From positions 9,686 to 73,685 of the forward strand of contig CALVXU010000015.1 in assembly GCA_944371605.1 (NCBI GenBank): a DNA stretch of 64,000 nucleotides, given 5' to 3'. The stretch's first letter is position 1. The number at the start of each line of letters is the position of its first letter. This DNA is from an uncultured Bacilli bacterium (lineage in GTDB: Bacteria; Bacillota_I; Bacilli_A; RFN20; CAG-288). A program made the position numbers and the translations under genes. The notes under the pieces are model-generated. The model did no database searches. It worked only from the letters and a program-made list of their open reading frames with translations, and was not told the origin of the DNA. Positions 15,039 to 35,200 of the stretch are shown here, piece by piece.

Positions 15039-15398
15039 TTATTGATCAAGTTTGACGACGACTGTTTCTTTCTTAGTATGTAATACATTATAAAGAATTG
15101 GGACAACAAAAAGAGTGCAGAAAGAAACGACAAGTTTAAATAAGACTAAACTAGCTGGTTTGAACATGTGCCATTTCTTTGTTCTAGTCTTTTTTTGTAA
15201 TGTGGCCTCATTTTCGGTTTTAGATTTAACTTTATAACCATTTCTTTCGTAAACATCAATAACACTTTCAAATTCTGCTAAGCTTTTTGTGACTTTAGTT
15301 GAACTAGACATATCATTATCCTCCGATATAAAAATTTTACTTGCATCCCCCCCCCAATTAAAGTCAATACTATTATTAAAAAACATCGAGTCACTCAT
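15039..15398 (-). CDS. Hypothetical protein with C-terminal TM helix; contains a G8 tract
   Basis: 119-aa ORF with a C-terminal hydrophobic segment ASLVLFKLVVSFCTLFVVPILY. Codons 14-17 (N-W-G-G-D) are encoded by aat-tgg-ggg-ggg-gat. I recognised no family. Confidence 0.45.
   Translation of the reverse strand: MSDSMFFNNSIDFNWGGDASKIFISEDNDMSSSTKVTKSLAEFESVIDVYERNGYKVKSKTENEATLQKKTRTKKWHMFKPASLVLFKLVVSFCTLFVVPILYNVLHTKKETVVVKLDQ
15347..15354 (-). repeat. G8 (C8 on the plus strand) homopolymer inside a coding sequence
   Basis: Direct reading gives ttgcatCCCCCCCCaatt at 15347-15354. Confidence 0.9.
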
Positions 15399-17528: not shown

Positions 17529-17546
17529 CGTTCAATCCCTCCCCCT

Positions 17547-20663: not shown

Positions 20664-20665
20664 TT

Positions 20666-22105
20666 TCAATTCCTCCCCTTCAGTTTAAATTCAGGCATCT
20701 TTACTTTTTTAAACTCACTATCTAATAGGCATAGTTGATTTTTAATATCTTGTCTCATCCTAATAGCTCTCGAGAGACAATATTTATCGAACAAATCCAA
20801 GTCCACATCTGATACTTTGCGATAATGCGGGAATAAGATTTTCAAATACGCTGTCGCTATTCTCTTCACCGCACTGATATCACGAGTGTCACCATCAACT
20901 TCTTCTAAAAGTTCGTCGACCAAATGATCATAAACAGAATCGTTTCTAAAAAGATGTAGCATCTCAGTAAAATACTCACTGTTTAAAGATAAACCAGTCA
21001 CTTTCATCGACTCGCTCATCCGAGGAATGTCCCAACCACGAATGAAGCCATGAATACGATCTAATAAAGCCGAATCTCTAAAAATCATCGGCAGTTCAGA
21101 AAACATATCGACATTAGTATCCATATCAGCTTCTTTGATATTTCCTAAAAAAACCATTCCAGCATCAGCGATAGTCTTTTTAGTGCCAACAGCAAATTCA
21201 CCATTTTCTAGATATCCTTTCAATGCTCCTTGCATCTCATTCATATCTGGAAAACGAATGGTTTTTATCTCATCTAAAGCGACAACATCATAATTACCGA
21301 TGAGTCCGACCATATGATAGCGCATATCATAAAACAGCTTGGCTCTAGTCATCACACCACCAGAATTGAGCCATACATATTTAGATAAGCGAGAAAAAAC
21401 ATATGATTTTCCAGTCCCCTTCGGTGCCAGTTCAATCAGATTAAGACGCTTTTGAGCGAAAGGTAAAAGTCGAGAAATCATTGTCAGTCGTTCTTCTTCA
21501 TCAGCAAAAGAAGAAGCATTATAATCCATCGCACCCAAAACTAATTCAATCCATTCTTCGATAGAAAATTCTTTTCTGATATTACAAAAGTAATTCGCAT
21601 CTAATCTGTATGGCTTAAAGGCAGTAAACTTCTTAAGATTTATCTTTCTTAAAGTTTTTTTGCCTTGCACGTATTCCATTTTATTCAGAGTGACAACTCC
21701 CCAAAATTCACTATCTAAAGAAACTTTTTCTTCCTTGATTTTTTCCCATGCAAAATCAGATACAACAGTCGAATCAAAATCGACATCTAAATCCGGCATA
21801 GCAAAGGAAACATATCCTTCAGTGAGATTGATATTGATTTTTAATTTTGCTAAAAAAGTTATAGTACCAGAATTCAAAATAATCTCATCTAATAACAGCG
21901 GCCACGAAGTTTTATCCGGAATCAATTCCTTGACTTTTTCAGCTATCAAATTGATGTCATAAGTTCCGTCTTGATTAGCGTATTTTTTAACGATGTAATC
22001 ACGGATAAAAGCAGGAAGCGATAAAGAAGCGAAGAGTGAAGAAGCTTCTTTTTTATATAAAGACATCGGTTCAAAAAACTGTTGTAATTTTTCTTGAGTA
22101 CTCAT
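20666..22105 (-). CDS. BrxL-N-terminal / TIGR02688-like P-loop ATPase (no Lon-protease domain)
   Basis: Walker A LIELAPKGTGKSYVFS and Walker B YDVVALDEIK. The N-terminal region (LPAFIRDYIVKKY...KVKELIPDK...FLAKLKININLTEGYVSFAMPDL...FWGVVTL) is collinear with my recollection of the BrxL N-terminus (VPVYVLEYLLGMY...VK.IL..NYVRPDE...VIDKVTVKLNEK.D.YEA.L.NLG...GGIWC). At 479 aa it matches the TIGR02688 size class rather than full BrxL. Confidence 0.6.
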   Translation of the reverse strand: MSTQEKLQQFFEPMSLYKKEASSLFASLSLPAFIRDYIVKKYANQDGTYDINLIAEKVKELIPDKTSWPLLLDEIILNSGTITFLAKLKININLTEGYVSFAMPDLDVDFDSTVVSDFAWEKIKEEKVSLDSEFWGVVTLNKMEYVQGKKTLRKINLKKFTAFKPYRLDANYFCNIRKEFSIEEWIELVLGAMDYNASSFADEEERLTMISRLLPFAQKRLNLIELAPKGTGKSYVFSRLSKYVWLNSGGVMTRAKLFYDMRYHMVGLIGNYDVVALDEIKTIRFPDMNEMQGALKGYLENGEFAVGTKKTIADAGMVFLGNIKEADMDTNVDMFSELPMIFRDSALLDRIHGFIRGWDIPRMSESMKVTGLSLNSEYFTEMLHLFRNDSVYDHLVDELLEEVDGDTRDISAVKRIATAYLKILFPHYRKVSDVDLDLFDKYCLSRAIRMRQDIKNQLCLLDSEFKKVKMPEFKLKGRN

Positions 22106-22106
22106 A

Positions 22107-23576
22107 TTAAATTCCTAAATCATTTTCTTCGATCGGAGAAGAAATCTTAATCATGAATGAACATACTACATTTTTATCGAAAACATCCACTTGATATTCA
22201 CCTGCTTTTTCAATCTTAAAAAGATTGCTCTTATAATTTTTGATATCTTTAGTAGTAGCTACTTTTTGCCCATTCACAGAAATATAAATTGAATCATGTT
22301 GACCGCTTAGATAAAACTCAACCTGATAAAGATTTGTAGGACTATAGTCAAGTTCTCTATTCTTAACTATCAGTTCTTCATCAAGCGGAATATCTTGCTT
22401 AACACGGTTGTTTAGTGATTGTGTAGAAACATCATGAAGAGTCTTTTGAGAGCTATCGACTCCAGCATATTTTTCATATTCTTTAATATCTTTGATGTCG
22501 ATGTGTTTCCTAATTTCATCTGCCTCTCTGATAAAGTCTGCCATAGTGATATTGACAATCGTGTCACCTTTAAACGAAGCTACTAATGCGCGTTCTTTGG
22601 CTTTATCACATAAAAGGAACATATCAGCTCCAGAAAAATTATCAGTTATAGCCGCTAATTGATTAATGTCAACATCAGAATCCAAAGGTAATTTACTTAC
22701 ATTCTTAATAAGCATTCTTTTTCTTTCTTCATAATTTGGTAGTCTGATATAAATCTTTGTAGAAAAGCGGCCACTTCTTAATGCAGCACTATCAATACTC
22801 CAAGGTTTATTAGTAGAACCTAATAACAACAGATTAGGATTCTTTCCTGTGAAGCCATCAATCTGCTGTAAAAATTCATTTACACGGCGATCGTTATGTA
22901 TATCTAGACCGCGTGAGGCGAATAGAGTATCCATCTCATCGATGAAAATGATGCTTCTTTCATCTTTGCCTACAGCCTCAAATAATGAAGCGATATTTTT
23001 TTCAGATTCTCCAACCCACTTAGAAACAATATCAGATGAACGGACTAGATAAAACTTAGCTTTCACTTCATGGGCAACTGCTTTCGCTAACATCGTTTTA
23101 CCAGTGCCAGGCGGGCCATATAACAAAACTCCGCCACCGCTTTGTTTCTGATAAATCTTATATTTTTCTGGATACATCAAAGGATAGATCATGGCGATCT
23201 TTATCTCTTCTTTCGCCTCATCTAAACCGATGATATCATCGAATGAAACGTCTGGTGCTTCAGTGCATTGCCATATTTTTTTATCATCATCGCTATTAGC
23301 TTTATTTTTAATACCATTTGCTTTGTTTGTAGGAGCACGAGATGTATTCATGTTTTCTAATGTTAAATCATCAGCATATTTGACAAGTCTATTGGCTTTT
23401 TCTATCCGGGCTTTTTTTAATTCAGTTGTGGAAGATTTGCTCGCTAAAAGCAACTGCTGAGCAGCTAAATAATAATTGCGCTTAGCAAGATCAAGATTAC
23501 CATTAGCTTCATATTGTTTGGCTAAACGAAGATAATGGTCATATTTGTCCATTAAAAAGCTAACATTATTACCCAT
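22107..23576 (-). CDS. MIT-domain AAA+ ATPase of the Vps4/katanin/spastin (meiotic) clade, with an extra C-terminal beta-rich domain
   Basis: The N-terminus YLRLAKQYEANGNLDLAKRNYYLAAQQLLLASK...KARIEKANRLVKYADDL is MIT-like. The AAA core is VLLYGPPGTGKTMLAKAVAHE, SSDIVSKWVGESEK (compare Vps4 SSDLVSKWMGESEK), IIFIDEMD, GSTNKPWSIDSAALRSGRFSTKIYIRLP (compare Vps4 [25 protein letters not shown]). Confidence 0.8.
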   Translation of the reverse strand: MGNNVSFLMDKYDHYLRLAKQYEANGNLDLAKRNYYLAAQQLLLASKSSTTELKKARIEKANRLVKYADDLTLENMNTSRAPTNKANGIKNKANSDDDKKIWQCTEAPDVSFDDIIGLDEAKEEIKIAMIYPLMYPEKYKIYQKQSGGGVLLYGPPGTGKTMLAKAVAHEVKAKFYLVRSSDIVSKWVGESEKNIASLFEAVGKDERSIIFIDEMDTLFASRGLDIHNDRRVNEFLQQIDGFTGKNPNLLLLGSTNKPWSIDSAALRSGRFSTKIYIRLPNYEERKRMLIKNVSKLPLDSDVDINQLAAITDNFSGADMFLLCDKAKERALVASFKGDTIVNITMADFIREADEIRKHIDIKDIKEYEKYAGVDSSQKTLHDVSTQSLNNRVKQDIPLDEELIVKNRELDYSPTNLYQVEFYLSGQHDSIYISVNGQKVATTKDIKNYKSNLFKIEKAGEYQVDVFDKNVVCSFMIKISSPIEENDLGI

Positions 23577-24156
23577 TGAGTTTTTCCTGTAGTTTCTTAT
23601 CTAAATCAGCAAGAGATGCCTCGACATCATCCTTTTTGCCGTCTTGATTAATTTCTTCATTTATTAAAGACATGATTTCATCATTAGAAATATTACTGGC
23701 TTCAGAGACATTAGAGAATGAATCTTTAGAATCATCTAAAAACAGTTCCATTCTCTCTTGTTGTTTTTCAGTAGAAGCCATCGCTAAGCTGAATTGCTTA
23801 GAGACTTGTGCGAATTGCTTGTCATCTGTGAGTTTGACCATATCCTTAGAAAGAGAAGACATTCCATTCAAAAATTCAGACGTGGTTTGCAACATATCTT
23901 TCAAAGAGACCATGATTTCAAAATTGATTTTCATCTCACGAATCTTTTTCTCTTGTGCTAATGCACTTTTTAAAGCAGAAATCGCTAAAGATAGCTCATT
24001 ATCTAAGCCATGCAGCTTAGCTTCTTTAGCTTTTTCAATATAAATCTGTTTTTGCTCTTCTAACTTCTTCAATTGTTTCGTCATTTGAGCGATAGTTTTC
24101 TTCAAGGTTAACTTTTTTTCAAATTCTTTTTCTTCCTTACTTTTAAATATTGACAT
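23569..24156 (-). CDS. ESCRT-III (CHMP/Snf7)-like coiled-coil protein with C-terminal MIM-like helix
   Basis: 195 aa with a basic N-terminal half, an acidic C-terminal half and a long helical hairpin pattern. It is collinear with CHMP2-type proteins; for example, FAQVSKQFSLAMASTEKQQERMELFLDD aligns with LPQIQKIMMEFERQAEIMDMKEEMMNDAIDD. The C-terminus ASLADLDKKLQEKLNG resembles the MIM1 motif (CHMP2A ADLEERLKNLRR). Confidence 0.6.
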   Translation of the reverse strand: MSIFKSKEEKEFEKKLTLKKTIAQMTKQLKKLEEQKQIYIEKAKEAKLHGLDNELSLAISALKSALAQEKKIREMKINFEIMVSLKDMLQTTSEFLNGMSSLSKDMVKLTDDKQFAQVSKQFSLAMASTEKQQERMELFLDDSKDSFSNVSEASNISNDEIMSLINEEINQDGKKDDVEASLADLDKKLQEKLNG

Positions 24157-24727
24157 CTTGAGACTCCTCTTTCATATCTGATGAACTATTAGGTAAATCA
24201 TCACTTTCTTCAAACATCGCTAAAAGTTGATCATCGCTTTCATTGACCCCGTATATCTTATCATCTGGAGTATAAGACGCATTGACTTCATTAAAGACAT
24301 CATCAGCACTAGTCATAATCTCTTCACTCTTCACTTTAGTCTGCAATGCGCCATTCAAAAATTTAGCAAGGTTCTTTTGATCTGATAATAAATCCTGCAA
24401 AGATACATCTGAAGCAGCTTTAATAAAATCTTTATCGTCTAAAGCATCTTTAAGCTTTTTCAAAAGTTGTAAATTATAGAGCAAGTATAATGAACGTTGG
24501 ACTAAAGTTTGACGATCTTTTTTTAACGCTTCTATCTTCTTTGCATATAGAAGTCTAATATCACGATTCTTCTCTACTTTGCCTTTTTCTAATAGAGCTT
24601 GTTCTTCACGTGATTTTTGAATTATCTGCTCTTCAAGTGCTTGTTCACGATTATCTAATTCGATGATAGCATCAACAACTTCTTCACGTTTAAGCTTTTT
24701 AAATTTATTCTTCTTAAACGGCCACAT
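24143..24727 (-). CDS. ESCRT-III (Snf7)-like coiled-coil protein
   Basis: 194 aa with a basic N-terminus (MWPFKKNKFKKLKREE). It follows a Snf7-like pattern: ai.eL...e.LE....k.eee...L...G.....r....aKk.e.Lkk....l......l.n.q. The C-terminal tail is acidic (DDQLLAMFEESDDLPNSSSDMKEESQD). Its start overlaps the upstream stop in TGATG. Confidence 0.55.
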   Translation of the reverse strand: MWPFKKNKFKKLKREEVVDAIIELDNREQALEEQIIQKSREEQALLEKGKVEKNRDIRLLYAKKIEALKKDRQTLVQRSLYLLYNLQLLKKLKDALDDKDFIKAASDVSLQDLLSDQKNLAKFLNGALQTKVKSEEIMTSADDVFNEVNASYTPDDKIYGVNESDDQLLAMFEESDDLPNSSSDMKEESQDVNI

Positions 24728-25095
24728 CAGAATTTTTCCTCTTTAGTATCAATAGTAGTGACCAAGTTCTTTCTTTTCGTGATTGCTAATTTTAAATCAT
24801 TGATGCAGGAGATCAGCTTTTCACTAGCAAAATCAGTTTTTTTCAAGCACTTATTAACTTCAATCATCAAATCACCAATAGTGTTTTGGATATTTCTATC
24901 TGCCTTTTCACTATCAGCACGTGGGATGAGATATTTGATTTCCTCTCTCAAAGTTTTTAATTCCTTAGAAAGGTTGTCGTCTTTTCCTTCGACTAAATCA
25001 ACTAAAATATTCATCGAAGAAAGCATCTCAGAGATGCGATTCTTTGACTTAACCTCATCTTTATATGCAGAATTTTTATTTTTAAAAAAGAACAT
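24727..25095 (-). CDS. Small helical protein of unknown family (operon gene 2)
   Basis: An ORF of about 122 aa, predicted helical by composition. I moved the start to the ATG at 25095, 8 nt after GGAGG; the track start at 25110 contains the SD itself. Confidence 0.5.
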   Translation of the reverse strand: MFFFKNKNSAYKDEVKSKNRISEMLSSMNILVDLVEGKDDNLSKELKTLREEIKYLIPRADSEKADRNIQNTIGDLMIEVNKCLKKTDFASEKLISCINDLKLAITKRKNLVTTIDTKEEKF

Positions 25096-25119
25096 TTCCT
25101 TTTCCTCCAATCAATTCAA

Positions 25120-26235
25120 TCATCGAAGTTTTTGTCCACAATTAGGACAGAAGAGAGCATTTTCTGGAACACGAGCATGACAAGAAGGACACACACCATC
25201 TTCGATCAACTTAGTACCATCATTAGGACAGAACTTCATATTCCCACCAAATTTATTATGACAAGTGGGACAGACCATAGTGATAGAATGGGAACCAGAA
25301 ACAGGTTTAGCATTAGGAACTGATTTATTTCCATCTGTAGGCCATCCTAAAATTTTTAAAACATCATAATACTTATCAATATCTGAACTTTGTAAATCAT
25401 GTAAAATTTTCTCTCTTTCAAAGTTCTTATCATCTAATCTTTCTAATTCGGCGGCTATTTCCTTTGCATCTTTTTTCTCTTGCTCTTTATCTTTTAATTC
25501 TTTACGTCGTTTTTCGAGAGCTTGAATTTCAACCTCACTCGGAGAGATATTGCCGATAGTGAATGAGCAAACTTCTAAGCCATAATCATCACTGAACATC
25601 TGATTGATCTGTGTCTTAATATTTTCTGCGATATCTAATTTATATAAAGTTATTTCTTCAAAAGGAATATGTTTTTCCTTGAGCGTTTTATAAATATTAG
25701 GTTCAATGATAGATAAAAGTCTTTGCAATAAACGGATTTGTAAATCAGAGATTGTAAAATTCTTATCTGCTCCAACTAATTCTTGATAGAATTTTTGAGA
25801 ATTCTTTACACGTACTTCAAATTCACCAAATGCTCTCACATGAACCAAAATATCAGTAGCTTCATCGCGGAATGCGAAAGGCGTGCTAGTTCCCCATTTC
25901 ACAAGCAATCTAGCTGTTTTAGAAATAAAAACTAAATCAACTGAACAAGCACCTACTTTTCTAGCACTGAAAATTCCTTTTTTATAGTCAAATATCGGAT
26001 ATCTTCCGCCTTGTAAAACGTTCATCAGCATCCCGTCTTTCACAAACACCACTTCATGCGTTTGTGGAACAATAATTTCAGCTTCTGGATTTAAAACATC
26101 TGCTTGAAATCTCCAGAAAAGTGAATTGTTATCACCTTCAAATTTGATTTCTTTTAGATTTTTTAAATCCTTCTTATTCTTCTCATTGATCGAATCATCA
26201 TTGTTATTCAAATTAAACACACTTCTTTTTGCCAT
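25120..26235 (-). CDS. SPFH/Band-7-like protein with C-terminal double zinc ribbon (YdjI / COG4260-like)
   Basis: SLFWRFQADVLNPEAEIIVPQTHEVVFVKDGMLMNVLQGGRYPIF and LVFISKTARLLVKWGT fit the YdjI/virion-core-like SPFH family. The C-terminus CPTCHNKFGGNMKFCPNDG...CPSCHARVPENALFCPNCG holds two zinc ribbons. I moved the start to the ATG at 26235, 6 nt after GGGGGT. Confidence 0.7.
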   Translation of the reverse strand: MAKRSVFNLNNNDDSINEKNKKDLKNLKEIKFEGDNNSLFWRFQADVLNPEAEIIVPQTHEVVFVKDGMLMNVLQGGRYPIFDYKKGIFSARKVGACSVDLVFISKTARLLVKWGTSTPFAFRDEATDILVHVRAFGEFEVRVKNSQKFYQELVGADKNFTISDLQIRLLQRLLSIIEPNIYKTLKEKHIPFEEITLYKLDIAENIKTQINQMFSDDYGLEVCSFTIGNISPSEVEIQALEKRRKELKDKEQEKKDAKEIAAELERLDDKNFEREKILHDLQSSDIDKYYDVLKILGWPTDGNKSVPNAKPVSGSHSITMVCPTCHNKFGGNMKFCPNDGTKLIEDGVCPSCHARVPENALFCPNCGQKLR

Positions 26236-26520
26236 AGTGTACCCCCATACACACATATTTTATTTATTATATTAGAAAAAAAGTATACACACAATTAAAA
26301 ATATGTAACTTTAGTAGAATCCTAGTATAAAAATTCTCATTTTCAAATTTTACTAACTAAATGTTCCTAATGCTAAAATTAAATACTAAAAAACATAACC
26401 CATGTTGAATAAAATCTGAAAATTTGCATATATGATTGTGTGCCTACATATTACGTTTCGACATAGTAATCACTGTAATTATTTTTATCATGTAAAGTTT
26501 TAGAAGCTTACTGCTTAATT

Positions 26521-28218
26521 TTACAAAAGTTTGAGTACTGACAAAAAATCATCTAACTTAATAAAATTGACATCATGTTTGATTTTTTCTTTTAAGAAAC
26601 GACTTTCATCTTCATCTTTACAAATTAAAATATCAACATCTTTAGTTTCCAAAGCCAAAATATACCCTTGAGATTCAATTCTCTTACAAAGATCAATACA
26701 ATCTAAATCAGATTTTTGAACATCATTAGAAAAGGCGAATCTTTTACCTATAAATTTTGGATCGGATAATATTGTCTTATATTTTTCATCGCTCTTTCTT
26801 TCTCTTCTCAACTTGTCAAAAGGCTTTTCGATTACTCCTTTAAGCCTCGAAATATATTCCCTTAGTTTTCTTTCATCTGCGTTTAATTTTGTGACTTCAA
26901 TATCCCACTTGCTAGTAATTATGCATTCTAGACCAGCTTGCCTAATTAAATCCCCTAGCAACAACTTAGAATTAAAATGCTTCTCAATTAAATACTTTAA
27001 AGCAAGCATCGTAGCCATGGCATCATAAGAGGCTTCATGAAAATTGATATTTTTTGTTTCATCCTCAGGAAGATATTTTTTAACTATTGCTTCAAGTCCT
27101 CCACTCTCTTTTAATAACTGTTTAAAGAGAATATGAACATCTATAGCAAAAATATCCAATGGATTATTTCCATATCTCCTATAAGAATAATCAAGATAAT
27201 CAAAATCGTTTTTGACATCAAATCCAAAAATCAATATATCTTTTTGATTAAAAAGATAGTTAATATAATCGATATAATAATCAAACTCAGGGGCTTTTCT
27301 ATATATTTCGTAGTTATCTTTTTCGTACCTTAAATGAAGGTCTTTTTGATTTTTTCTACCAATGAGAGCAAAATTATAATTTCTCCCATTGCCAGGATTG
27401 ATTATGTATTCACCTCTCATTGGTCTCTGAAAATTTGATGTGACTATAGTCCAACCAAACTCACATATTTTACCTTCGTCGTTAAAACAGTTAGCACATT
27501 CCGTATCAAAAAAGATATATCGTTTTACATTATTCCAATTAGTATTATTAAAAATGTTCTCCTTTACTTGTTTTGACTTGAGCTTTACATATTCTTTTTT
27601 AAAGCTATTAGACGAAGTTGTATAGCACCATGATGAAAAGATATCCTTTGATAAGCATTCACTTAACGTAAATCTGTATTCATTACATATTTTTTCAAAA
27701 ACTTTAAAAGCTAATAAAGCATTAGTCTTTGAATAATGTTCTTTAATCTTAATAACATCATCATTTTTCGGAAAAAGATTATTTATTGCGTTACTTAAAG
27801 ATGGTATGACAAGTTTCTTCTTAGTAATTCTATAGAAAGTTTGTACATCAAAAGCTTTTATATTAATGTCGATTAACTCATATCTTTTACAATCAGATGA
27901 TATGTAAAATAAATCATTCTTAATATCCCAACCCATTACTTGGTTTTCAGGGTTAGTGAGCAACGACTTAATTTTTTCATAATAGTAGGGGAATTTATTT
28001 TGTTTCCTATAAAACTCATAATCATTTTCAAAGTGAGCAAGTTCAATTTTTCTTTCAACAACATCAGAAAAATCTTCATTTTCACCAGGATTGATGAAAA
28101 AATTGCCTTCTTCAATAATCTGAAAAGAATCATTAACAAGTACATAGCCAAATTGAGCAATTTTAGGTTGAATGTTATGTTTATTAGCCACTTCACAATC
28201 TATAAATAATAAATTCAT
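26521..28218 (-). CDS. Tandem DEDDh (DnaQ-like) 3'-5' exonuclease domains plus a C-terminal BRCT-like region
   Basis: Domain 1 has LLFIDCEVAN (ExoI), MGWDIKNDLFYI (ExoII) and EHYSKTNALLAF, where ExoIII has N in place of the usual D. Domain 2 has IFFDTECANC, FGFDVKNDFDYL and FHEASYDAMATMLAL, an intact H-x4-D. The tail is FIGKRFAFSNDVQKSDLDCIDLCKRIESQGYILALETKDVDILIC. Confidence 0.65.
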   Translation of the reverse strand: MNLLFIDCEVANKHNIQPKIAQFGYVLVNDSFQIIEEGNFFINPGENEDFSDVVERKIELAHFENDYEFYRKQNKFPYYYEKIKSLLTNPENQVMGWDIKNDLFYISSDCKRYELIDINIKAFDVQTFYRITKKKLVIPSLSNAINNLFPKNDDVIKIKEHYSKTNALLAFKVFEKICNEYRFTLSECLSKDIFSSWCYTTSSNSFKKEYVKLKSKQVKENIFNNTNWNNVKRYIFFDTECANCFNDEGKICEFGWTIVTSNFQRPMRGEYIINPGNGRNYNFALIGRKNQKDLHLRYEKDNYEIYRKAPEFDYYIDYINYLFNQKDILIFGFDVKNDFDYLDYSYRRYGNNPLDIFAIDVHILFKQLLKESGGLEAIVKKYLPEDETKNINFHEASYDAMATMLALKYLIEKHFNSKLLLGDLIRQAGLECIITSKWDIEVTKLNADERKLREYISRLKGVIEKPFDKLRRERKSDEKYKTILSDPKFIGKRFAFSNDVQKSDLDCIDLCKRIESQGYILALETKDVDILICKDEDESRFLKEKIKHDVNFIKLDDFLSVLKLL

Positions 28219-28221
28219 TAT

Positions 28222-28986
28222 TTAATTTCTATTTTCCTTATAATCTTTGTTCTTTTTTATAACAGCTTCTAGTAATTTAGGAGTTACACATTTTTCTTTT
28301 GCTTGCTTTACAATTGACGAAATATCTTTTGGAAGACAGCTTCCTCCATATCCTCTATTATTCTTATAGACAAAAGTATGACTTGAACCAATTCTAGGAT
28401 CTGCAATCCAAATTTCTCTAGCTTTGTTATATGAAACTCCTAGTTTTTGACAAATATCATACATCTCATTGCAAAAAATCACTTTAGTTGCTAAATATGC
28501 ATTTTCCATGTACTTAGCCATTTCGACAGTATCACTATCTCCTTGATATATTTTTACATTTGAATTAATAACACTTTGGTAAACTTCAATAGCCATATCA
28601 ATTGCATCTTGTTCGCCACCAAAAGATAGCCAAGAACGATCAGATAAATTGGCAAAAGGATGCGCAACAGTTTCACCATAATATTCAGGTTGAAAAACTA
28701 TCTTCTTATGGTATTTATTGACCATCTCTTTTGTAAAACCAACTTTAACAGTTGAACGTAAAATAAGCACTGGACATGAGCACATAGAAATTACTTCTTC
28801 AACTGCTGAAGTATCACAACTCCCATCCTCATTCATAGGCGTAGGAACACAAATAAAAGCAGCATCGCATTTATTAATTTCTTCCATACTTCCTATGTTT
28901 TTGAATTTATCATATAACACTGCTTCTTTAAAAAGATTACTCATTGCAGTTCCAACATGTCCCACTCCAACAATTCCAACTTTCAT
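28222..28986 (-). CDS. UDP-glucose/GDP-mannose dehydrogenase-family protein lacking the C-terminal UDP-binding domain
   Basis: MKVGIVGVGHVGTAM (Rossmann GxGxxG), FICVPTP and the catalytic Cys box GYGGSCLPKD. At only about 254 aa it is short. The start ATG at 28986 overlaps the TAA of the upstream giant gene in TAATG; the track start at 29001 contains the GGAGG. Confidence 0.7.
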   Translation of the reverse strand: MKVGIVGVGHVGTAMSNLFKEAVLYDKFKNIGSMEEINKCDAAFICVPTPMNEDGSCDTSAVEEVISMCSCPVLILRSTVKVGFTKEMVNKYHKKIVFQPEYYGETVAHPFANLSDRSWLSFGGEQDAIDMAIEVYQSVINSNVKIYQGDSDTVEMAKYMENAYLATKVIFCNEMYDICQKLGVSYNKAREIWIADPRIGSSHTFVYKNNRGYGGSCLPKDISSIVKQAKEKCVTPKLLEAVIKKNKDYKENRN

Positions 28987-31900
28987 TATTTTTTCCTCCA
29001 TTTAATTCCATGATATTTTTTTGTATACAAGTTAAGATATTTAGATAATAAATTGATAACTTCATCCACATTATTAGCTGAGTAAATACAATCTTCTAGT
29101 ATGGCTGGATATCTAATTCTGTCATCTAGTTTTCGACCTGCTAGTTTCTTTCCATATCCATCAACATTATTAAATGCAATTATCAATTTATACTTTTGCC
29201 AAGCCATAGCCATTTCAGATAAAGTGCCAGCACCACCACCAATAACAACTACAGCATTTGCATCAACTACTAGACCATTTCGTAATAAATCAAGCCCAGT
29301 TGGCACGACAACATCAGCGAAATTATTCGCTTCTTCAGTATTAGTTGATGGAATAATAGCTATCGTTGAACCTTTTCTATATTTTGGAGATGATCTAGCT
29401 CCTTTAAAGACTGCTTCCATTACTCCACCTAAGCCGCCAGTTTGAATGTTATATCCTAGTTCTGCCAATTTTTTACCTAGTTCAAAAGCGGTTTTGTATT
29501 TTGTTGAATTATCTAAAACTGATCCGTCTCCTATTACAGCAACAGTTGGATATTGGCTTAATATTTCAGCTCTACTTAATAACCATTTTTGCATTTTTTG
29601 TTGAAAATTATCTTTATAAATGCCTAGTTTATTTTTACTTTCATCAGGCAAATCAAATAGATAAATTTGTTCTTTTATAAAAGCTGGTGAATAAGCGTGT
29701 TCAATTATTGGAAGCATCATTGCATAATCAGTTCTAATATCTATATATTGGCTGTCTTTCATTAAATTATCTTGAATAAATTCACATAGATAGCGCCTAA
29801 AACATTTAGGACGGAGCCATATATTATCTCCATTCCTTTCCCAACTATTTTTAAATGAAACTAAATCATATTTTTTTAATGGCTTATCTAGTCTAAAGCA
29901 GTTACCAATAGTAACATCATTACCACTATCAAATTTTTCTTTAATAATACTCAAAGCATCGTTTCTAATGAGAGCATCATCACTATCAATGTTGATAATT
30001 ATACTTTTTGGATTAATGCAAATATGCTTATAAAAGAATTCAAAGTTTGCCAAAGAGCCAACTCTGGTCTCGTTTTTAATATAAATAATTTTATCTTTCC
30101 AAATAGGTGAATAAGTTGCTAGCATTCTAATATATTCACTTGATGAAATATTAGTTGAATTATCATCTATATATACAATTTGAAAATTACTAAAACTTTG
30201 CATTTCTAAAGAATCAAATAATCTTTTTAGTTTAATTGTTGGTGTATTTCTTCCCCTAATGAAAACAACTACTTCTTTTGTTGTTTGAGGTATCCATTGA
30301 TAAGACTCGCATAAGTTAACATTATCTAATTGAATTAATGGAACAAACCTATTTTCAACTTGTCTTCTAACTATACTTATAAAATTCTTAACTTTCTTAG
30401 TTTCATTTTCTGGATGTATGAAAAATAAATGATTTGAAATTAGTCTTAGTGATTCCACTTTATTTAAAGATTTATCTAAAGCACGATTCCAACTATCTTT
30501 TAGAACACCATCTATAAGTTCATTATCTAATGGTAACTTTGTGCTTAACCTCTTTAAATCAATAAATGACGATCTAACTTCAGTTCTATTTGAAAGTATA
30601 GGGCTTCCATTTCTGTTATGAGCTATGCTTAAGGATAAAGTTAAAGCATTATTCTTTTTCAGAATATTTAAAGCCTCAGATAGACTTTCCTTACCATCAT
30701 TAAAATAAATTATGTCAGAATCTGTTTGGAAAGCGTATCTTGTTTTGCAAGATTCAAAACCATTTAAGATTGCTAATAGATTTTGTCCGTTTACACTATG
30801 TGCATCAATTGATTTTAATGAAAAATACTTTTTATAAAGTAAATAATCTTTAGGCAAATCTAATGATACAACTCTATCAATATAGCCATCATCTTTAAGA
30901 CGGCTAATTTCAGCTTTAAACTTTTCTATATTATCTTCATCATATCTACGTACTCTTTTCACATTTTCAATATCAATAGTCAAAATTCTTTCGGCAAATA
31001 CATCTTTTCTTTCTAATTGGGAAACAATATGCTTAACATTATCATAAATAGTATTAGCTTCCATTGAATTAGCTTTAACTATTAAAGTGCAATCAGTTAA
31101 AATATTTTTATTAGATTTATAACAATCAAAAATCAAATGTTCTCCGATAAAAGAGAGCGAAGATGTGTCTATTCCCTTATCTTCATATACCGCTTCAATA
31201 TTAAAGCCATATTTATTTAATAATCTTTCATAATAAGCTAGCGGTCGATGATATTCCTCTCTTTTTCCATAAATAGTAACTTTTTTATACAAAGAGCTTT
31301 TTTCATATTTACCATCATAATTTTTAATTGAAGTTACAGTATGATTTACATTATCAAAAAAAGGATTACAAATACTTAAAATAAATCTCCCATCATTTAA
31401 AACTAATTGATTAATTTTACTTAAAATAAAGTCATTGGTTTTATTATCAGTACAGCAAAGCACTTTATTGCAATTTACAAAATCAAAAATACGCTCTACA
31501 TTATTAATATCATCAATAACAGTAACTTTATTAGACGCTCTTTCATTTATTGTTTTTTTATCTATATCAAAAACATATGTGTTAAATTTATCAGCGATGG
31601 CATTAGCTATTCTACATTTTCCTGCACCATAATCTAAAACGCTGCTAGGATGATGACTATTTATTAAACTTAAAATGATTGGGTCATGAGTCTGTTCTTT
31701 TCTTTTATCATTTATTAAATCGTAAAATACATCTAGAGCATAATTAAATGCTTTATTTTCTTCTTGATAACTTTTAGAAATTAGAATTCTAAATTGATGT
31801 TTGTTGAGATTTGAAAACTTAATCATTTGATAGCAACGCTCAACACTCTTTTTATAATCTTTTTCGCTATAAGATACGATATCTCTTCCTAAATCTACAT

Positions 31901-34409
31901 AGATAAACTCATTATTAGATATTAATATATTTTCTTTTTTAAAGTTGTTTATCACTAATCCATGAAGCCTAAGTTCATTTAAAAAATGAGCTAATTCTTT
32001 AGCATATCCACCTTCATATTTTTTAAAATTAATAATCGTGTCATAAGAACAATACGCATAATCTAGTGCATCATTGAACCTTATATTCTTAGGAAGCTCA
32101 GTGATATCATTTAGTTTGCTAATTATTGATTTGAAAAAGTTCAAATTATCTTTTTTAAAAAACACTTTATATGTTCTATTAGTGGAACTATAAACGGCTC
32201 CTTCTAATCCATACCCAAGTAAAATAGGATTATCACAGCCACATTTATTACTAAGAAAGTTTTGTATCTTTTCTAATTCGTCTTTTTTCTCATCTAAAGC
32301 GATATATGATCTCAATTCCTCAAAACCAGTATTAACAAATGAAATATCACTTAGTTCTTTTATTTTTCTTATAAAATTATAAACAAGTTCATCATTTTCT
32401 AAGTGCTTAAAACCTTCTTCATTTAGTATTTCTAGTAAGCCAATAACTCTAAAGTAACTAATAGCAAATTTAATTGTTCTATTCTTTATTGATTTAATAA
32501 ATTCAGAATAAAAATTCGTTCTTGATAAAAAATCCTCTTTTGTAATAGCTGATATCATTGAATAACCTAAAATATCTAGGGCTTCTTTTTTAATTTCTTT
32601 ATCTAAATCAAAGTCATAAGTAAATCTATTTTGAAACAAACTAAAAGTTGAGCCTATTATTTTATATCCTTTTTTCTTAGCTAAAATTATCCAAAGACTA
32701 TCTCCACGTCTTGAAATACAATCATTAATCTTTATTGAAAAATTAGGAACAAGAAGTAAATTTCTATTTAAGAAAAGTGTATTTCCACCCCTTCTAATAG
32801 GTTTAAAATCGCTAATGGGACATTCAAATAACGGTCTACTAACTGCTTTGCCACCTAAAACATCTTTTAAAGAACAATTTTCAATTAATGGAAATGGAGT
32901 TTCGTTACATGTATTTCCTTCATTTGAAAATGAATAATAATAGTCTTTTTTGTAGTAAAGTTGTTCTTGCGATAGTTTGTTTTTACCAAGCTTTTTTGAA
33001 TAAACATAATCTAATAAAGTGTTTCTTATAGTAGATAAAGCAGGTATTGGTGCATCTCCTGAATAGCTTCCAACAACTGCATCAGCCTTATTAAAATAAC
33101 TAGAAACAAATCCTTTTATATCAGCTTTCTTAATCTTAAATTTACCATTTTCTCTATAAATAGAAGATAATTGCATATCTTCATCTAAAACATAAACAAT
33201 GTCGCCATTTTGAGTATTTTTATATGCAAAATATTGAAGAATACTTCTAGCAACAGATATCTCATTTACCATTCCTTTTTTAGGAAAATTATCAGAAACG
33301 AATTTATCAAAATAATTAGTTTCTACAAGCTTTTTTGCTTTTTTTAATGATAATATAGAAAATTCAATGCCTGTTTCACTTAAAATATTGTTTATTTCAT
33401 CTAAGTCAGAACCTCTTTCAAAATTAGCAAAGACAATTATCTTTTTACTTGGATAATCTGCTTCACAAATATCATTAATTAGTCTTTTTGCATAATTAAT
33501 ATCCGTTGTAATAAATGAAAAACATAATCTTGGAAAATAATCTAAATATGTATATTTAATATTACTATCTAATTCATTAAAACTTGTGTTTTTTTCTAAC
33601 AAATTTAAAAGCTCTGCTTCATTTGTTATACCTGACAAAAGTTTAACTCTGTTGAAAAATGCTCTCTTAACATCATCAATCATAAGAGAACCGTATTTAT
33701 AATAAAATTTAGCCAAAGATATCTTTTTGCTTTCTTTATTATTTGTTAACCTTTCTCTTGAGTTTGATGCATCAATTTCAACTAAATATTTATCTACTAC
33801 GCTTATGTTTGGGTTAAGCATTAATAGTCTAGTAAATAAATCACGATCAGTAGTTGAATCCATATTCTCATCAAAGCATCCAGCTTTCAGCAATATCGAA
33901 AATTTAACAAAAGTGTTAGAACCTTGAATATGTGGATTACCTTTTAGAAAAGAATAAATGCTCAATTCATGAGGGATAGTAAGCTGAAAACATTTCTCAT
34001 CAGTATGATAGTTTAAGCCACATACAACAATATCAGTTTTGTTAGTCTTTGAATTCCAACATTCTCTTAAATAGTCTTTATGCCAAATATCATCATCATC
34101 TAAAAATGCAATAAATAGATTATTTAGATTATATTGATTATCAAAAGCATATTTAGCAAAAACTTCTTCTATAGCCGAATTTAAATTACCAGCATAATTA
34201 TGAGAGTATTTATCTTTTAAAAAATGAAAACCAAATTTAGAGCAAAGAGTTCTTTCAATACTTTCATTCTCATTAGAAGAATCACTAGCGACAAAAACAT
34301 CTAATGGTTTTTTTGTTTGTAATGATATAGATTCTAATGCATTGTTTAAAAGCTCGACTCTGTTCTTAGTAGCAACAACAACAATAATCCCTTCTTTTTC
34401 GGTTAGCAT
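28986..34409 (-). CDS. 1807-aa multidomain protein: GT-A glycosyltransferases, kinase-like domain, class I methyltransferase, C-terminal LOG/TIGR00725-like domain
   Basis: The N-terminal GT2 has IIVVVATKNRVELLNNALESISLQT...FLDDDDIW. A second GT-A-like region has IVYVLDEDMQ. The kinase-like block is at about nt 31800-32260 (LLGYGLEGAVYSS, YKVFFKK, HGLVINNFKKENILI, YVDLGRD). The SAM methyltransferase motif I is VLDYGAGKCRIA (about nt 31613-31640). A further GT2 has VVVFIRGRN...IVYIDDNS...NIDSDDAL (about nt 29700-30275). The LOG-like domain has VAVIGDGS...TGGLGGVMEA...VVIGGGAGTLSEMAMAW (about nt 28989-29560). Confidence 0.7.
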   Translation of the reverse strand: MLTEKEGIIVVVATKNRVELLNNALESISLQTKKPLDVFVASDSSNENESIERTLCSKFGFHFLKDKYSHNYAGNLNSAIEEVFAKYAFDNQYNLNNLFIAFLDDDDIWHKDYLRECWNSKTNKTDIVVCGLNYHTDEKCFQLTIPHELSIYSFLKGNPHIQGSNTFVKFSILLKAGCFDENMDSTTDRDLFTRLLMLNPNISVVDKYLVEIDASNSRERLTNNKESKKISLAKFYYKYGSLMIDDVKRAFFNRVKLLSGITNEAELLNLLEKNTSFNELDSNIKYTYLDYFPRLCFSFITTDINYAKRLINDICEADYPSKKIIVFANFERGSDLDEINNILSETGIEFSILSLKKAKKLVETNYFDKFVSDNFPKKGMVNEISVARSILQYFAYKNTQNGDIVYVLDEDMQLSSIYRENGKFKIKKADIKGFVSSYFNKADAVVGSYSGDAPIPALSTIRNTLLDYVYSKKLGKNKLSQEQLYYKKDYYYSFSNEGNTCNETPFPLIENCSLKDVLGGKAVSRPLFECPISDFKPIRRGGNTLFLNRNLLLVPNFSIKINDCISRRGDSLWIILAKKKGYKIIGSTFSLFQNRFTYDFDLDKEIKKEALDILGYSMISAITKEDFLSRTNFYSEFIKSIKNRTIKFAISYFRVIGLLEILNEEGFKHLENDELVYNFIRKIKELSDISFVNTGFEELRSYIALDEKKDELEKIQNFLSNKCGCDNPILLGYGLEGAVYSSTNRTYKVFFKKDNLNFFKSIISKLNDITELPKNIRFNDALDYAYCSYDTIINFKKYEGGYAKELAHFLNELRLHGLVINNFKKENILISNNEFIYVDLGRDIVSYSEKDYKKSVERCYQMIKFSNLNKHQFRILISKSYQEENKAFNYALDVFYDLINDKRKEQTHDPIILSLINSHHPSSVLDYGAGKCRIANAIADKFNTYVFDIDKKTINERASNKVTVIDDINNVERIFDFVNCNKVLCCTDNKTNDFILSKINQLVLNDGRFILSICNPFFDNVNHTVTSIKNYDGKYEKSSLYKKVTIYGKREEYHRPLAYYERLLNKYGFNIEAVYEDKGIDTSSLSFIGEHLIFDCYKSNKNILTDCTLIVKANSMEANTIYDNVKHIVSQLERKDVFAERILTIDIENVKRVRRYDEDNIEKFKAEISRLKDDGYIDRVVSLDLPKDYLLYKKYFSLKSIDAHSVNGQNLLAILNGFESCKTRYAFQTDSDIIYFNDGKESLSEALNILKKNNALTLSLSIAHNRNGSPILSNRTEVRSSFIDLKRLSTKLPLDNELIDGVLKDSWNRALDKSLNKVESLRLISNHLFFIHPENETKKVKNFISIVRRQVENRFVPLIQLDNVNLCESYQWIPQTTKEVVVFIRGRNTPTIKLKRLFDSLEMQSFSNFQIVYIDDNSTNISSSEYIRMLATYSPIWKDKIIYIKNETRVGSLANFEFFYKHICINPKSIIINIDSDDALIRNDALSIIKEKFDSGNDVTIGNCFRLDKPLKKYDLVSFKNSWERNGDNIWLRPKCFRRYLCEFIQDNLMKDSQYIDIRTDYAMMLPIIEHAYSPAFIKEQIYLFDLPDESKNKLGIYKDNFQQKMQKWLLSRAEILSQYPTVAVIGDGSVLDNSTKYKTAFELGKKLAELGYNIQTGGLGGVMEAVFKGARSSPKYRKGSTIAIIPSTNTEEANNFADVVVPTGLDLLRNGLVVDANAVVVIGGGAGTLSEMAMAWQKYKLIIAFNNVDGYGKKLAGRKLDDRIRYPAILEDCIYSANNVDEVINLLSKYLNLYTKKYHGIKWRKK

Positions 34410-34563
34410 AATAAAACCTCTAGCTTGATAAGTGTAGAATAATAATGTACTTATTCACCTCTACTTAAAAATAGAGCAAAATAACACGCCGTTTTGCCCT
34501 AAATAAAAATCATAATTTTGTCCTAATCATTATCACAAAGTAACAAAATTCCACCTACTAAGC

Positions 34564-34716
34564 TTACAAAACTTTAAAACCAACACTAAGAGTTTTCTCA
34601 CCTTTATAAGCTTTATACACGCTTACTGTCATCGGAATACACCAACATAATGGAATAAGTAACCATCCCATTCCAATAGTACATAACAAGCATAAAATAA
34701 ATGCTGCTAATTTCAT
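34564..34716 (-). CDS. 50-aa small membrane protein (unannotated, below the track threshold)
   Basis: ATG at 34716 lies 7 nt after GGGAGAG. It translates to MKLAAFILCLLCTIGMGWLLIPLCWCIPMTVSVYKAYKGEKTLSVGFKVL. It sits directly downstream of the G8-containing promoter and upstream of the giant gene on the same strand. Confidence 0.5.
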   Translation of the reverse strand: MKLAAFILCLLCTIGMGWLLIPLCWCIPMTVSVYKAYKGEKTLSVGFKVL

Positions 34717-34751
34717 TGTTTCAACTCTCCCTATAAATAAAATTCGTTTTT

Positions 34752-34778
34752 ATTTTACCCCCCCCTAGGAAAAGTCAA
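34752..34778 (-). promoter_or_regulatory. Sigma-70-type promoter with a G8 homopolymer in the spacer
   Basis: The minus strand reads TTGACT (34778-34773), tttcctaGGGGGGGG as a 15-nt spacer, then TAAAAT (34757-34752). The ATG at 34716 lies 35 nt downstream of the -10. Confidence 0.5.
34758..34765 (-). repeat. G8 (C8 on the plus strand) homopolymer in an intergenic promoter spacer
   Basis: Direct reading gives attttaCCCCCCCCtagga at 34758-34765. Confidence 0.9.
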
Positions 34779-35083
34779 GAGTTTTCGATGATCATAGCAC
34801 TATTTCGTCATCATCTTATAGTCAAGTTTATATCTAGTAAACGTTGCATAGCCAATAATAGTAGCTGCTATATCGTTTATTCTTTTTAAGCTATAATTCT
34901 GTTTTGATAGTTGAATACTAATAAATATTCTAATAATAAAAGCAATAAAAAATTCGTATTTATTAGAGACGTTCAAAAACACTTATATCATTTAAATAAC
35001 ATCAATAATTAGATAAGTCTACTCTTTCATCTTTAGGCAGATACAAGACGTAATCTTACAAAGTGCCAATTTATCATATAAAT

Positions 35084-35129: not shown

Positions 35130-35200
35130 AGCAGCCAACGGGAATCGAACCCGCATATACAGCTTGGGAAGCTATCGTTCTACCACTGAACTATGGCTGC
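35130..35200 (-). tRNA. tRNA-Gly (CCC anticodon)
   Basis: The reverse complement GCAGCCATAGTTCAGTGGTAGAACGATAGCTTCCCAAGCTGTATATGCGGGTTCGATTCCCGTTGGCTGCT folds as a cloverleaf. Acceptor is GCAGCCA/TGGCTGC, D stem GTTC/GAAC, anticodon stem ATAGC/GCTGT, loop TTCCCAA, T stem GCGGG/CCCGT with loop TTCGATT. The discriminator U is typical of bacterial Gly. No CCA is encoded. Confidence 0.8.

Follow-up and report, generated by a model that had tools for sequence, protein, structure and literature searches.

The question raised by this locus is what a compact, AT-rich group of genes built around a single 1807-residue multidomain protein produces, and in which biological role. The locus lies in a 64,000-nt stretch of DNA from an uncultured Bacilli bacterium; the whole stretch is referred to below as the window, and all positions are those of the window. 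The initial annotation had taken these genes for a horizontally acquired unit, probably serving a glycoconjugate, with a nucleic acid as alternative target because an exonuclease was part of the unit. We find that the genes for the giant protein, a short nucleotide-sugar-dehydrogenase-like protein and a DEDDh exonuclease make up a self-contained, horizontally mobile unit, located at a hotspot that varies among strains and is bordered by rpoC/tRNA-Gly on one side and a defence-like operon on the other. As predicted from its domains, this cassette is a mobile, autonomous and cytoplasmic multi-enzyme unit with four probable glycosyltransferase (GT) sites, a methyltransferase, and ATP-binding kinase-like and LOG-like nucleotide-binding modules. 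We tentatively read it, with less than even confidence, as a cytoplasmic glycan-assembly line that works on a universal, probably nucleotide-derived acceptor and serves inter-genomic conflict (anti-phage or anti-mobile-element) instead of making a surface polysaccharide.

Strain comparison defines a mobile three-gene cassette

Conspecific contigs, whose flanks show 99% nucleotide identity with the window, were reached through the proteins of the neighbouring genes. Three of them (L052, L054 and L055) have position 35070 joined to 27684, with 7,385 bp (27685-35069) missing and the rpoC and tRNA-Gly side intact. Microhomology is visible at the joint. On two other contigs (L053 and L011), an unrelated 3.2-kb cassette occupies the place of 26423-34751; the exchange breakpoint falls immediately after the -10 hexamer of a promoter-like element containing a run of eight G (G8). 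A second strain with the island (L056) carries it at 98.6-99.1% identity. Finally, a metagenome-assembled genome (MAG) of a different Bacilli organism (L012) shares 26534-34460 at 76% nucleotide identity, within unrelated flanks. The strain comparison and the L012-shared segment thus identify the mobile unit as the giant, short dehydrogenase and exonuclease genes. Absence or replacement among strains with nearly identical flanks, the L012 copy in other surroundings and the scatter over many phyla described below all uphold the horizontal acquisition that had been proposed.

Composition points in the same direction. Segment 26423-34751 has a G+C content (GC) of 27.9% as compared to 34.1% for the whole window, and a sliding calculation finds no 8.3-kb stretch with a lower value, the minimum elsewhere being 30.9%. 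The giant gene has a GC at third codon positions of 15.2%, the lowest among window genes of at least 150 aa (others 19-40%). The island is therefore AT-rich, as first noted by eye, and the composition is not uniform. The comparison with rpoC used at that time had the right sign but overstated the size of the effect: nowhere else in the window is GC as high as in rpoBC (40-42%). The strain comparison is stronger evidence for the island than its composition.

A tRNA-integrated element was considered and rejected. No integrase, repeat of the tRNA 3′ end, or terminal or flanking direct repeat was found at the locus, which has a single copy of the tRNA 3′ end. Its behaviour is that of a recombination hotspot, not of an integrative element.

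The four open reading frames (ORFs) named at the outset are co-oriented on the minus strand exactly at the coordinates first given (Table 1), and the sequence directly shows the stop and start codons overlapping as TAATG at 28986 and the gap of 3 nt at 28219-28221. The ORF lister starts the middle gene at 29001. With a GGAGG motif 8 nt before the ATG at 28986 and homologs of 251-265 aa, the start was placed at that ATG, giving a 254-aa protein. The TAATG overlap, the GGAGG motif before the ATG and the 3-base gap to the next gene support translational coupling.

Two elements assigned to the island at first do not belong to the cassette. The small membrane protein encoded by the 50-aa ORF is not a component: the small ORFs upstream of the giant gene at other loci are unrelated, with no homology between loci, the ORF lies outside the L012-shared segment, and a 146-bp deletion removes most of it in L056. 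The G8 promoter is indeed present at 34752-34778; it is not specific to the island, since an identical element precedes the alternative cassette in L053 and may drive that 3.2-kb cargo too, judging from its sequence. The alternative cargo (L053 6664-9832; also L011) encodes a SHOCT-domain protein of 222 aa, a fragment of an N6_N4 methyltransferase (72 aa) and three products without Pfam match (92, 272 and 245 aa). An Rfam scan upstream of the cassette matched the tRNA alone, with no riboswitch or leader.

The G8 tract itself (34758-34765, read on the coding minus strand) sits within a 15-nt spacer that one or two extra G would bring to the optimal 16-17 nt, and a G9 tract occurs at 15347-15355 (coding minus strand), inside the 5′ end of a 119-aa ORF (15039-15398). 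Both tracts are candidates for slipped-strand phase variation. The length of the G8 tract was identical in all three strains examined.

The deletion in L052, L054 and L055 leaves a 299-aa exonuclease remnant made of the second DEDDh domain and the C-terminal domain. This ORF is present on 10 contigs, showing that the remnant is widespread, and sequences downstream of the tRNA possibly still allow its expression.

Table 1. Features of the locus and domains of the giant protein, with positions in the window
Feature	Position	Strand	Basis or remark
ORF of 50 aa, one hydrophobic helix	34564-34716	minus	Inside the variable segment, not a conserved component
Giant multidomain protein, 1807 aa	28986-34409	minus	No transmembrane segment, predicted cytoplasmic (hydropathy)
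Short UDP-glucose/GDP-mannose-dehydrogenase-like protein, 254 aa	28222-28986	minus	
Tandem DEDDh exonuclease, 565 aa	26521-28218	minus	
Strain-variable segment (island)	26423-34751	minus	blastn of conspecific loci against the window, junction sequences, GC
Transferable three-gene cassette (giant, short dehydrogenase, exonuclease)	26534-34460	minus	Common to L012, conserved gene order
Promoter-like TTGACT, 15-nt spacer with G8, TAAAAT	34752-34778	minus	Conserved flank
tRNA-Gly(CCC)	35130-35200	minus	Between rpoC and the variable segment; hotspot landmark, not an att site
GT2, giant aa 1-262	33624-34409	minus	PF00535, E 1e-13; D43 and DDDD104-107 invariant
GT-A-like, giant aa 290-612	32574-33542	minus	D409xD411 invariant, GGNT541-544 nearly so; no Pfam match
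Long-helix region, giant aa 613-721 (about 602-722)	32247-32573	minus	Helices 343-463 of the model
Protein-kinase-like, giant aa 722-905	31695-32246	minus	Profile matches to TTK and PknG, 5e-5 to 0.1
Class I S-adenosylmethionine (SAM) methyltransferase, giant aa 906-1095, motif I LDYGAGKC	31125-31694	minus	Pfam Methyltransf_23/31/11, Foldseek top matches
Third GT-A-like, giant aa 1098-1352, QTD1230-S-D1232	30354-31118	minus	AlphaFold and Foldseek; no Pfam match
Second GT2, giant aa 1365-1612, DD1415-16, D1475-x-DD1478	29574-30317	minus	PF00535, E 8.5e-11; D1475-x-DD1478 invariant
SLOG/LOG-like (TIGR00725-type), giant aa 1620-1807	28989-29552	minus	PF18306, E 2e-30 to 9e-29

Domain organization of the giant protein

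The giant protein carries, from the N-terminus, a GT2 domain, a GT-A domain, a helical region, a kinase-like domain, a SAM methyltransferase, a GT-A domain, a second GT2 domain and a LOG-like SLOG domain. Hydropathy analysis detected no hydrophobic segment. The glycosyltransferase and methyltransferase domains first recognized were confirmed, the two GT2 domains and the methyltransferase being matched by Pfam. That list was right as far as it went but missed the C-terminal SLOG/LOG-like domain and the protein-kinase-like domain.

PF00535 scores 86.2 bits over the whole protein (cut-off 23.3), on the stretches aa 10-147 and about 1394-1530. For the rest of the protein, a 60-sequence alignment was used to obtain an AlphaFold model of aa 260-1350 (1,091 residues, pLDDT 91.6), and aa 1098-1352 were modelled separately (pLDDT 95.8). 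In the first model, aa 290-612 show a Rossmann-like beta-alpha-beta core with a DxD motif after a strand; hhalign related this region to the C-terminal GT2 domain, with a weak E-value of 1.7e-3. Foldseek comparison of the second model with the PDB returned TarP, WrtF, COLGALT1, LH3, SpsA and TarS, with E-values from 3e-7 and TM-scores of about 0.5. By their predicted fold, these two regions are two further GT-A domains. A Foldseek search with the 1,091-residue model was dominated by methyltransferase matches and did not inform on the other domains, and a viral library gave domain-level matches only. All four DxD motifs, methyltransferase motif I and the ATP-binding motifs of the kinase-like domain are invariant or nearly so in the family.

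The kinase-like domain keeps the Gly-rich loop G732xGxEG737, K748 and D839-x-G841, all of them invariant. In the catalytic loop, the Asp is replaced by Asn822 (LVYNDLKPEN in PknG versus LVINNFKKEN), and Asn822 is invariant in the 60 sequences. On these motifs, the domain probably binds ATP but would be an atypical kinase or a pseudokinase.

The SLOG domain scores 100.5 bits with PF18306 (cut-off 26.3) and 93.8 with TIGR00725, below the cut-off of 106.9, which is passed by versions encoded as a separate gene (108.1). In the PDB it matches 6y01, 2iz5 and 1rcu best and, after these, cytokinin riboside 5′-monophosphate phosphoribohydrolases (LOG enzymes). The Arg and GGxGTxxE motif of these phosphoribohydrolases are conserved in it, and the non-catalytic molybdenum cofactor (Moco) carrier protein has them as well.

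A half dehydrogenase and a tandem exonuclease accompany the giant protein

The second gene had been described as encoding a truncated nucleotide-sugar-dehydrogenase-like protein, and the N-terminal and central domains of UDP-glucose dehydrogenase (UGDH) are indeed recognized in it. The NAD-binding domain PF03721 is matched with E 3e-11 (GIVGVGHVG) and the central domain PF00984 with E 5e-25 (GYGGSCLPKD), and a nucleotide-sugar (NDP-sugar) dehydrogenase model with E 1e-44. The catalytic Cys, Lys and Asn are retained (GYGGSCLPKD, AKYMENA). The C-terminal UDP-binding domain PF03720 is wholly absent, the alignment with 3gg2 being limited to residues 76-301; part of the N-terminal domain is also missing, and the protein scores far below every UGDH equivalog cut-off. 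A length of 251-265 aa is kept in 31 of the 32 family members found across 46 loci, the exception being a full-length 413-aa UGDH in L009, and the UDP-binding domain is likewise absent from these short homologs. Since the short form is conserved, the gene is not a pseudogene; retention of the catalytic residues and the translational coupling also led us to reject that possibility.

The tandem architecture predicted for the exonuclease was confirmed as DEDDh-like. In the second copy (aa 232-410, 26989-27525), D238, E240, D338, H394 and D399 are all invariant. The first copy is degenerate: in the window the last Asp of motif III is Asn (H...N), and further motifs are lost in relatives. Profile searches matched the PolC proofreading domain, Cas2-DEDDh, ISG20 and DnaQ (9e-8 to 4e-3), and the PADLOC DEDDh model (1e-11). 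A Cys motif, ECANC...GKICEFG (CxxC...C), adjoins Exo I; Cys252 is invariant in the DEDDh subfamily and the two other Cys are largely conserved, and the motif may form a metal-binding insert. A BRCT-like impression given by the C-terminal region of about 100 aa was confirmed neither by Pfam (23 members) nor by a PDB profile search. That the exonuclease is part of the unit, as had been assumed, is borne out by the homologs found directly after the short dehydrogenase in 8 of the 46 loci, and in L056. Exonuclease-bearing loci include Bacilli, Phocaeicola and a Peribacteria bin of the candidate phyla radiation (CPR).

The cassette is scattered over many phyla with a constant core and swappable partners

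Among 185,579 species, each represented by one genome, 38 giant loci were found in at least eight phyla. Full-length homologs show 35-77% identity. The hosts comprise uncultured Bacilli, Clostridia/Christensenellales, Anaeroplasmataceae and Mycoplasmataceae (Mollicutes), as well as Bacteroidales/Phocaeicola/Paludibacteraceae, Wolinella (Campylobacterota), Mucispirillum, Fusobacteriaceae, Treponema, a CPR Peribacteria bin and Pasteurella multocida (Pasteurellaceae). HMMER searches over 1.84 billion representative proteins returned 139 sequences at E<1e-30 and 503 at E<1e-3, a sister family included. In most loci the GC of the cassette is below that of its flanks, for instance 39 versus 53-56% in several Clostridia and Treponema loci. 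Carriage on plasmids was seen only for distant partial relatives. E. coli was rejected as a host: the "E. coli" contig CAVGNR010000006.1 (L037) is probably mis-binned, its flanks having 37% GC and 5,426 complete E. coli genomes giving no match. The giant gene on this contig appears split (1253 + 519 aa).

ORF clustering in 46 loci was used to count the modules, SLOG being counted on the 42 complete loci. The giant gene is always present in the cassettes analysed. SLOG occurs in 38 of the 42, fused or as a separate gene of 185-192 aa. The short dehydrogenase was found in 32 loci and an SDR epimerase/dehydratase, sometimes fused to the N-terminus, in 9. Around this core, accessories are swapped: the DEDDh exonuclease (8 loci, at least 3 phyla), a PHP phosphoesterase of the pAp-phosphatase/RNase AM type (6 loci), a radical SAM protein (13 loci), a 640-aa protein (C4) and a 246-aa protein resembling kinases of the aminoglycoside-phosphotransferase (APH) type (C5). 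A viperin identity of the radical SAM partner was discarded, as the alignment is confined to the core (positions 3-99 of 257) and MoaA gives the higher score.

C4 and C5 are both conserved in 9 loci. C4 sits between the giant and SLOG genes in Clostridia-type cassettes (L007, L021, L022, L038 and L041) and has no match in Pfam, NCBIfam or PADLOC; C5 shows an APH-like DxxxxN...D pattern, with no family match. PADLOC gave no match for either protein and a weak, core-level pVip similarity for the radical SAM protein.

The sister family (L057-L060, P0211 and about 90 similar representatives; 1,700-2,000 aa, 26-31% identity) has the kinase-like, methyltransferase and GT-A core alone in common with the giant family, and its members, too, have an SDR epimerase gene and a separate SLOG gene as neighbours. 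A more distant relative of the N-terminal third of the giant, a GT2 protein of 1,116 aa, is encoded inside the conjugative transfer region of Pseudoalteromonas donghaensis plasmid NZ_CP032092.1 (L051, 12001-18523). Downstream of it are a GTP cyclohydrolase II-NADAR N-glycosidase fusion (NADAR anti-phage model, 7e-27), an asparagine-synthase-like gene and an arylamine N-acetyltransferase gene, with a DGQHR-domain gene nearby.

Genomic neighbourhood of the cassette

With the exception of L009, no exporter, flippase, polymerase or initiating transferase was found beside the cassette in the window or in any of the about 40 loci. Homologs are not confined to canonical capsule or teichoic-acid loci, as one of about 40 loci lies in such a capsule locus.

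Defence genes recur near the cassette. Neighbours include GmrSD, SLFN/AlbA_2, an N6/N4 methyltransferase, SEFIR-TIR and a helicase in L005, and an MmeI-type restriction-modification enzyme, RmuC and a 1,340-aa DEAD helicase in L057; L001/2 also have defence neighbours. Among the 150 nearest flanking ORFs, PDC-S01 (four times), MADS components, AbiEii, type I methyltransferases and SLFN were recognized. Mobile neighbours (serine recombinases, an rve fragment, IS1) are present in some loci. This recurrent defence and mobile neighbourhood is suggestive.

In the window, an eight-gene operon lies directly downstream of the island (15705-26256, minus strand) and is conserved as a block in conspecific strains. 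It encodes an SPFH/band-7 and zinc-ribbon protein (25120-26256), small proteins of 127, 194 and 195 aa, an IetA-like AAA+ ATPase (22107-23576; PADLOC 5e-37), a short BrxL (20666-22105; 3e-174), a 1040-aa protein with TIR_2 in conspecific copies, and a 607-aa protein. The operon looks like an undescribed composite defence system.

DISCUSSION

Diderm, monoderm, wall-less and CPR bacteria all retain the cassette, and it brings no export or lipid-carrier genes of its own; this argues for a cytoplasmic substrate common to all of them. A target among nucleotides or nucleic-acid ends is suggested by the partners that recur, namely SLOG, DEDDh, PHP, radical SAM and NADAR; given these nucleotide-related partners, a nucleic-acid or nucleotide target is at least as plausible as a glycan target. 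The hotspot and the defence neighbourhoods suggest a role in inter-genomic conflict. We infer the order of the reactions, the acceptor and the biological role of the cassette from these features. In the proposed scheme, the four GT-A-fold domains of the soluble cytoplasmic giant would add sugars one after another. The short NAD-dependent dehydrogenase, whose place is taken by the SDR epimerase/dehydratase in other subtypes, would supply or create a hexuronic acid, and the SAM methyltransferase and the atypical ATP-binding kinase-like domain would decorate or gate the product. The LOG-like SLOG domain would bind or cleave a ribose-phosphate nucleotide acting as acceptor or trigger, and the DEDDh exonuclease, or the PHP phosphoesterase in other subtypes, would feed or process nucleotides or nucleic-acid ends. 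A more specific version of this reading, which we regard as speculative and rather improbable in its detail, is a new anti-phage or anti-mobile-element system with a glycosylation effector. There, a SLOG- and pseudokinase-gated giant would build a methylated uronic-acid glycan on a nucleotide, a nucleic-acid end or a base, poisoning or marking the replication of the invader, with swappable exonuclease, PHP and radical SAM modules supplying or processing the substrate.

Several observations weigh against a cytoplasmic assembly line serving conflict. Only about one locus in five has the exonuclease and four Clostridia loci lack SLOG, so that neither is strictly required. The catalytic-looking motif of the SLOG domain is the one also kept by the non-catalytic Moco carrier protein, the giant has no recognizable nucleic-acid-binding domain, and the structural neighbours of its GT domains (TarP, TarS, WrtF, SpsA) are ordinary surface-glycan enzymes. 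A homolog 36% identical to the giant (L009) belongs to a capsule locus of typical make-up (Wzy, flippase, full-length UGDH). The tallies of defence neighbours are raw, uncorrected counts, and many loci have ordinary neighbours. No model of PADLOC-DB v2 matches the giant or the dehydrogenase, the exonuclease matching the generic DEDDh model only; tblastn found no giant homolog in 50,697 phage records; and full-text literature searches turned up no description of the giant family or of the cassette.

The main rival is decoration of the cell surface, or serotype variation, which we hold to be possible though unlikely. The giant, working at the cytoplasmic face, would then build or decorate teichoic acid, lipooligosaccharide or O-antigen, a glycolipid or capsule, the exporters of the host would carry the polymer out in the manner of TarP/TarS/TarM or of O-antigens that depend on an ABC transporter and receive a WbdD-type cap, and strain variability and AT-richness would reflect phage or immune selection on the surface. 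Its GT domains do resemble TarP, TarS, WrtF, SpsA and PglI-type enzymes, uronic acids, to which the UGDH-like protein or epimerase points, are typical of capsules, and O-antigen and capsule loci are likewise AT-rich and strain-variable as a rule. All hosts are animal-associated, and one homolog stands within the capsule locus of L009. The association of GTs, a kinase-like domain, a methyltransferase and long helices moreover recalls the logic of WbdA/WbdD. In E. coli O9a, these proteins serve an ABC-transporter-dependent O-antigen, with soluble GTs and a kinase/methyltransferase chain terminator that has a coiled-coil ruler; the giant similarly unites cytoplasmic GT domains, a protein-kinase fold, a class I SAM methyltransferase and a long helical segment. 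However, the giant is one fused polypeptide with the kinase preceding the methyltransferase, its GTs are GT-A instead of GT4, WbdD is not among its sequence or fold matches, and neither a Wzm/Wzt transporter nor an undecaprenyl-phosphate initiating enzyme is linked to the cassette in about 40 loci, where exporter, flippase and ABC transporter are missing as well. A WbdD-type phosphate cap is doubtful because the catalytic Asp of the kinase-like domain is replaced, here by Asn. TarP, itself borne on a mobile element and influencing interactions with phages and the immune system, is with TarS, SpsA and WrtF the best structural neighbour of the third GT-A domain, and shares its DxD-type metal site. 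These are nevertheless single-domain enzymes acting on one wall polymer, with 10-12% identity, whereas the cassette also occurs in wall-less and diderm hosts; the diderm, monoderm, wall-less Mollicutes and CPR hosts have no surface polymer in common. Surface decoration also leaves the constant SLOG partner and the DEDDh, PHP and radical SAM accessories unexplained, and the dehydrogenase lacks the UDP-binding domain.

A nucleoside-sugar small molecule, diffusible or intracellular and directed against competitors or acting as an antiviral antimetabolite, is improbable in our view. It would follow the logic of the blasticidin S and mildiomycin pathways, which combine a nucleoside monophosphate (NMP) hydrolase, a base-to-glucuronate glycosyltransferase, a radical SAM enzyme and a methyltransferase: an NMP N-glycosidase would free the base, a GT would attach a uronic acid sugar to it, and tailoring would fall to radical SAM and methyltransferase enzymes. 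The cassette offers counterparts in the LOG-like, N-glycosidase-like domain with its phosphoribohydrolase Arg and GGxGTxxE, in the GTs, in the UGDH-like enzyme as a source of uronic acid and in the methyltransferase. To these some subtypes add the radical SAM protein (13 loci, weak similarity of MoaA, viperin and BlsE type confined to the core), exonuclease or PHP enzymes that could supply NMPs, and, beside a distant relative, a RibA-NADAR N-glycosidase. Unlike these hexuronic-acid nucleoside pathways, the cassette has four GT domains, more than needed, and no exporter, self-resistance, aminotransferase or peptide-ligase genes. The parallel is one of enzyme types, the only sequence match, to BlsE (9e-4), being that of a generic radical SAM protein. 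Glycosylation of DNA or RNA, the alternative of the initial annotation, would yield hypermodified host or invader nucleic acid with the exonuclease as nuclease arm of a modification/restriction-like pair. Speaking for it are the active-looking DEDDh exonuclease, related to PolC-exo, Cas2-DEDDh and ISG20 and conserved in several phyla, the defence-hotspot location, and the presence next to the cassette in L005 of GmrSD, which targets glycosylated DNA. It is nonetheless quite unlikely: there is no hydroxymethylase, dioxygenase or other maker of a sugar-accepting base, the giant has no DNA-binding domain, about 80% of the loci lack the exonuclease, and neither similarity to phage DNA glucosyltransferases nor phage homologs were found. 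Highly improbable, finally, is cytoplasmic protein glycosylation, in which the GT and kinase-like domains would modify host or phage proteins. The protein-kinase fold is closest to PknG and TTK, and the third GT-A domain resembles the collagen-glycosylating COLGALT1 and LH3, but at fold level only (TM-score about 0.5); the kinase catalytic Asp is missing, and the UGDH-like protein, SLOG and the nucleotide-type partners would stay unexplained.

The components of the cassette differ from their known relatives. Its SLOG domain is fused to, or directly follows, a giant GT protein, unlike other LOG, TIGR00725 and Moco-carrier SLOGs; the NCBIfam label of the P. multocida giant, "TIGR00725 family protein", rests on this SLOG end. 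Compared to UDP-glucose 6-dehydrogenases, the dehydrogenase is a short protein without C-terminal UDP-binding domain and of fixed length. The exonuclease differs from PolC, Cas2-DEDDh, DnaQ and ISG20 by its tandem arrangement with a degenerate first copy, its extra CxxC...C motif beside Exo I, its C-terminal domain without assigned family and its dedicated linkage to a GT cassette. The individual domains are known; the system, that is a giant GT/kinase-like/methyltransferase protein with SLOG, a half dehydrogenase and swappable nucleotide-type modules, appears undescribed.

What is defined so far is a unit of about 7.9 kb with natural isogenic plus and minus strains, candidate catalytic residues and at least four subtypes. 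Should the cassette decorate surfaces, it would amount to a serotype-conversion module, portable and exporter-independent, for Gram-positive, Gram-negative and wall-less bacteria of the gut and mouth alike, with a bearing on phage host range and host immunity. Should it serve in conflicts, bacterial immune chemistry would gain glycosyl transfer by a giant multi-GT enzyme, and a role would be given to the TIGR00725 branch of SLOG proteins, to a half dehydrogenase devoid of UDP-binding domain and to a kinase fold without catalytic Asp.

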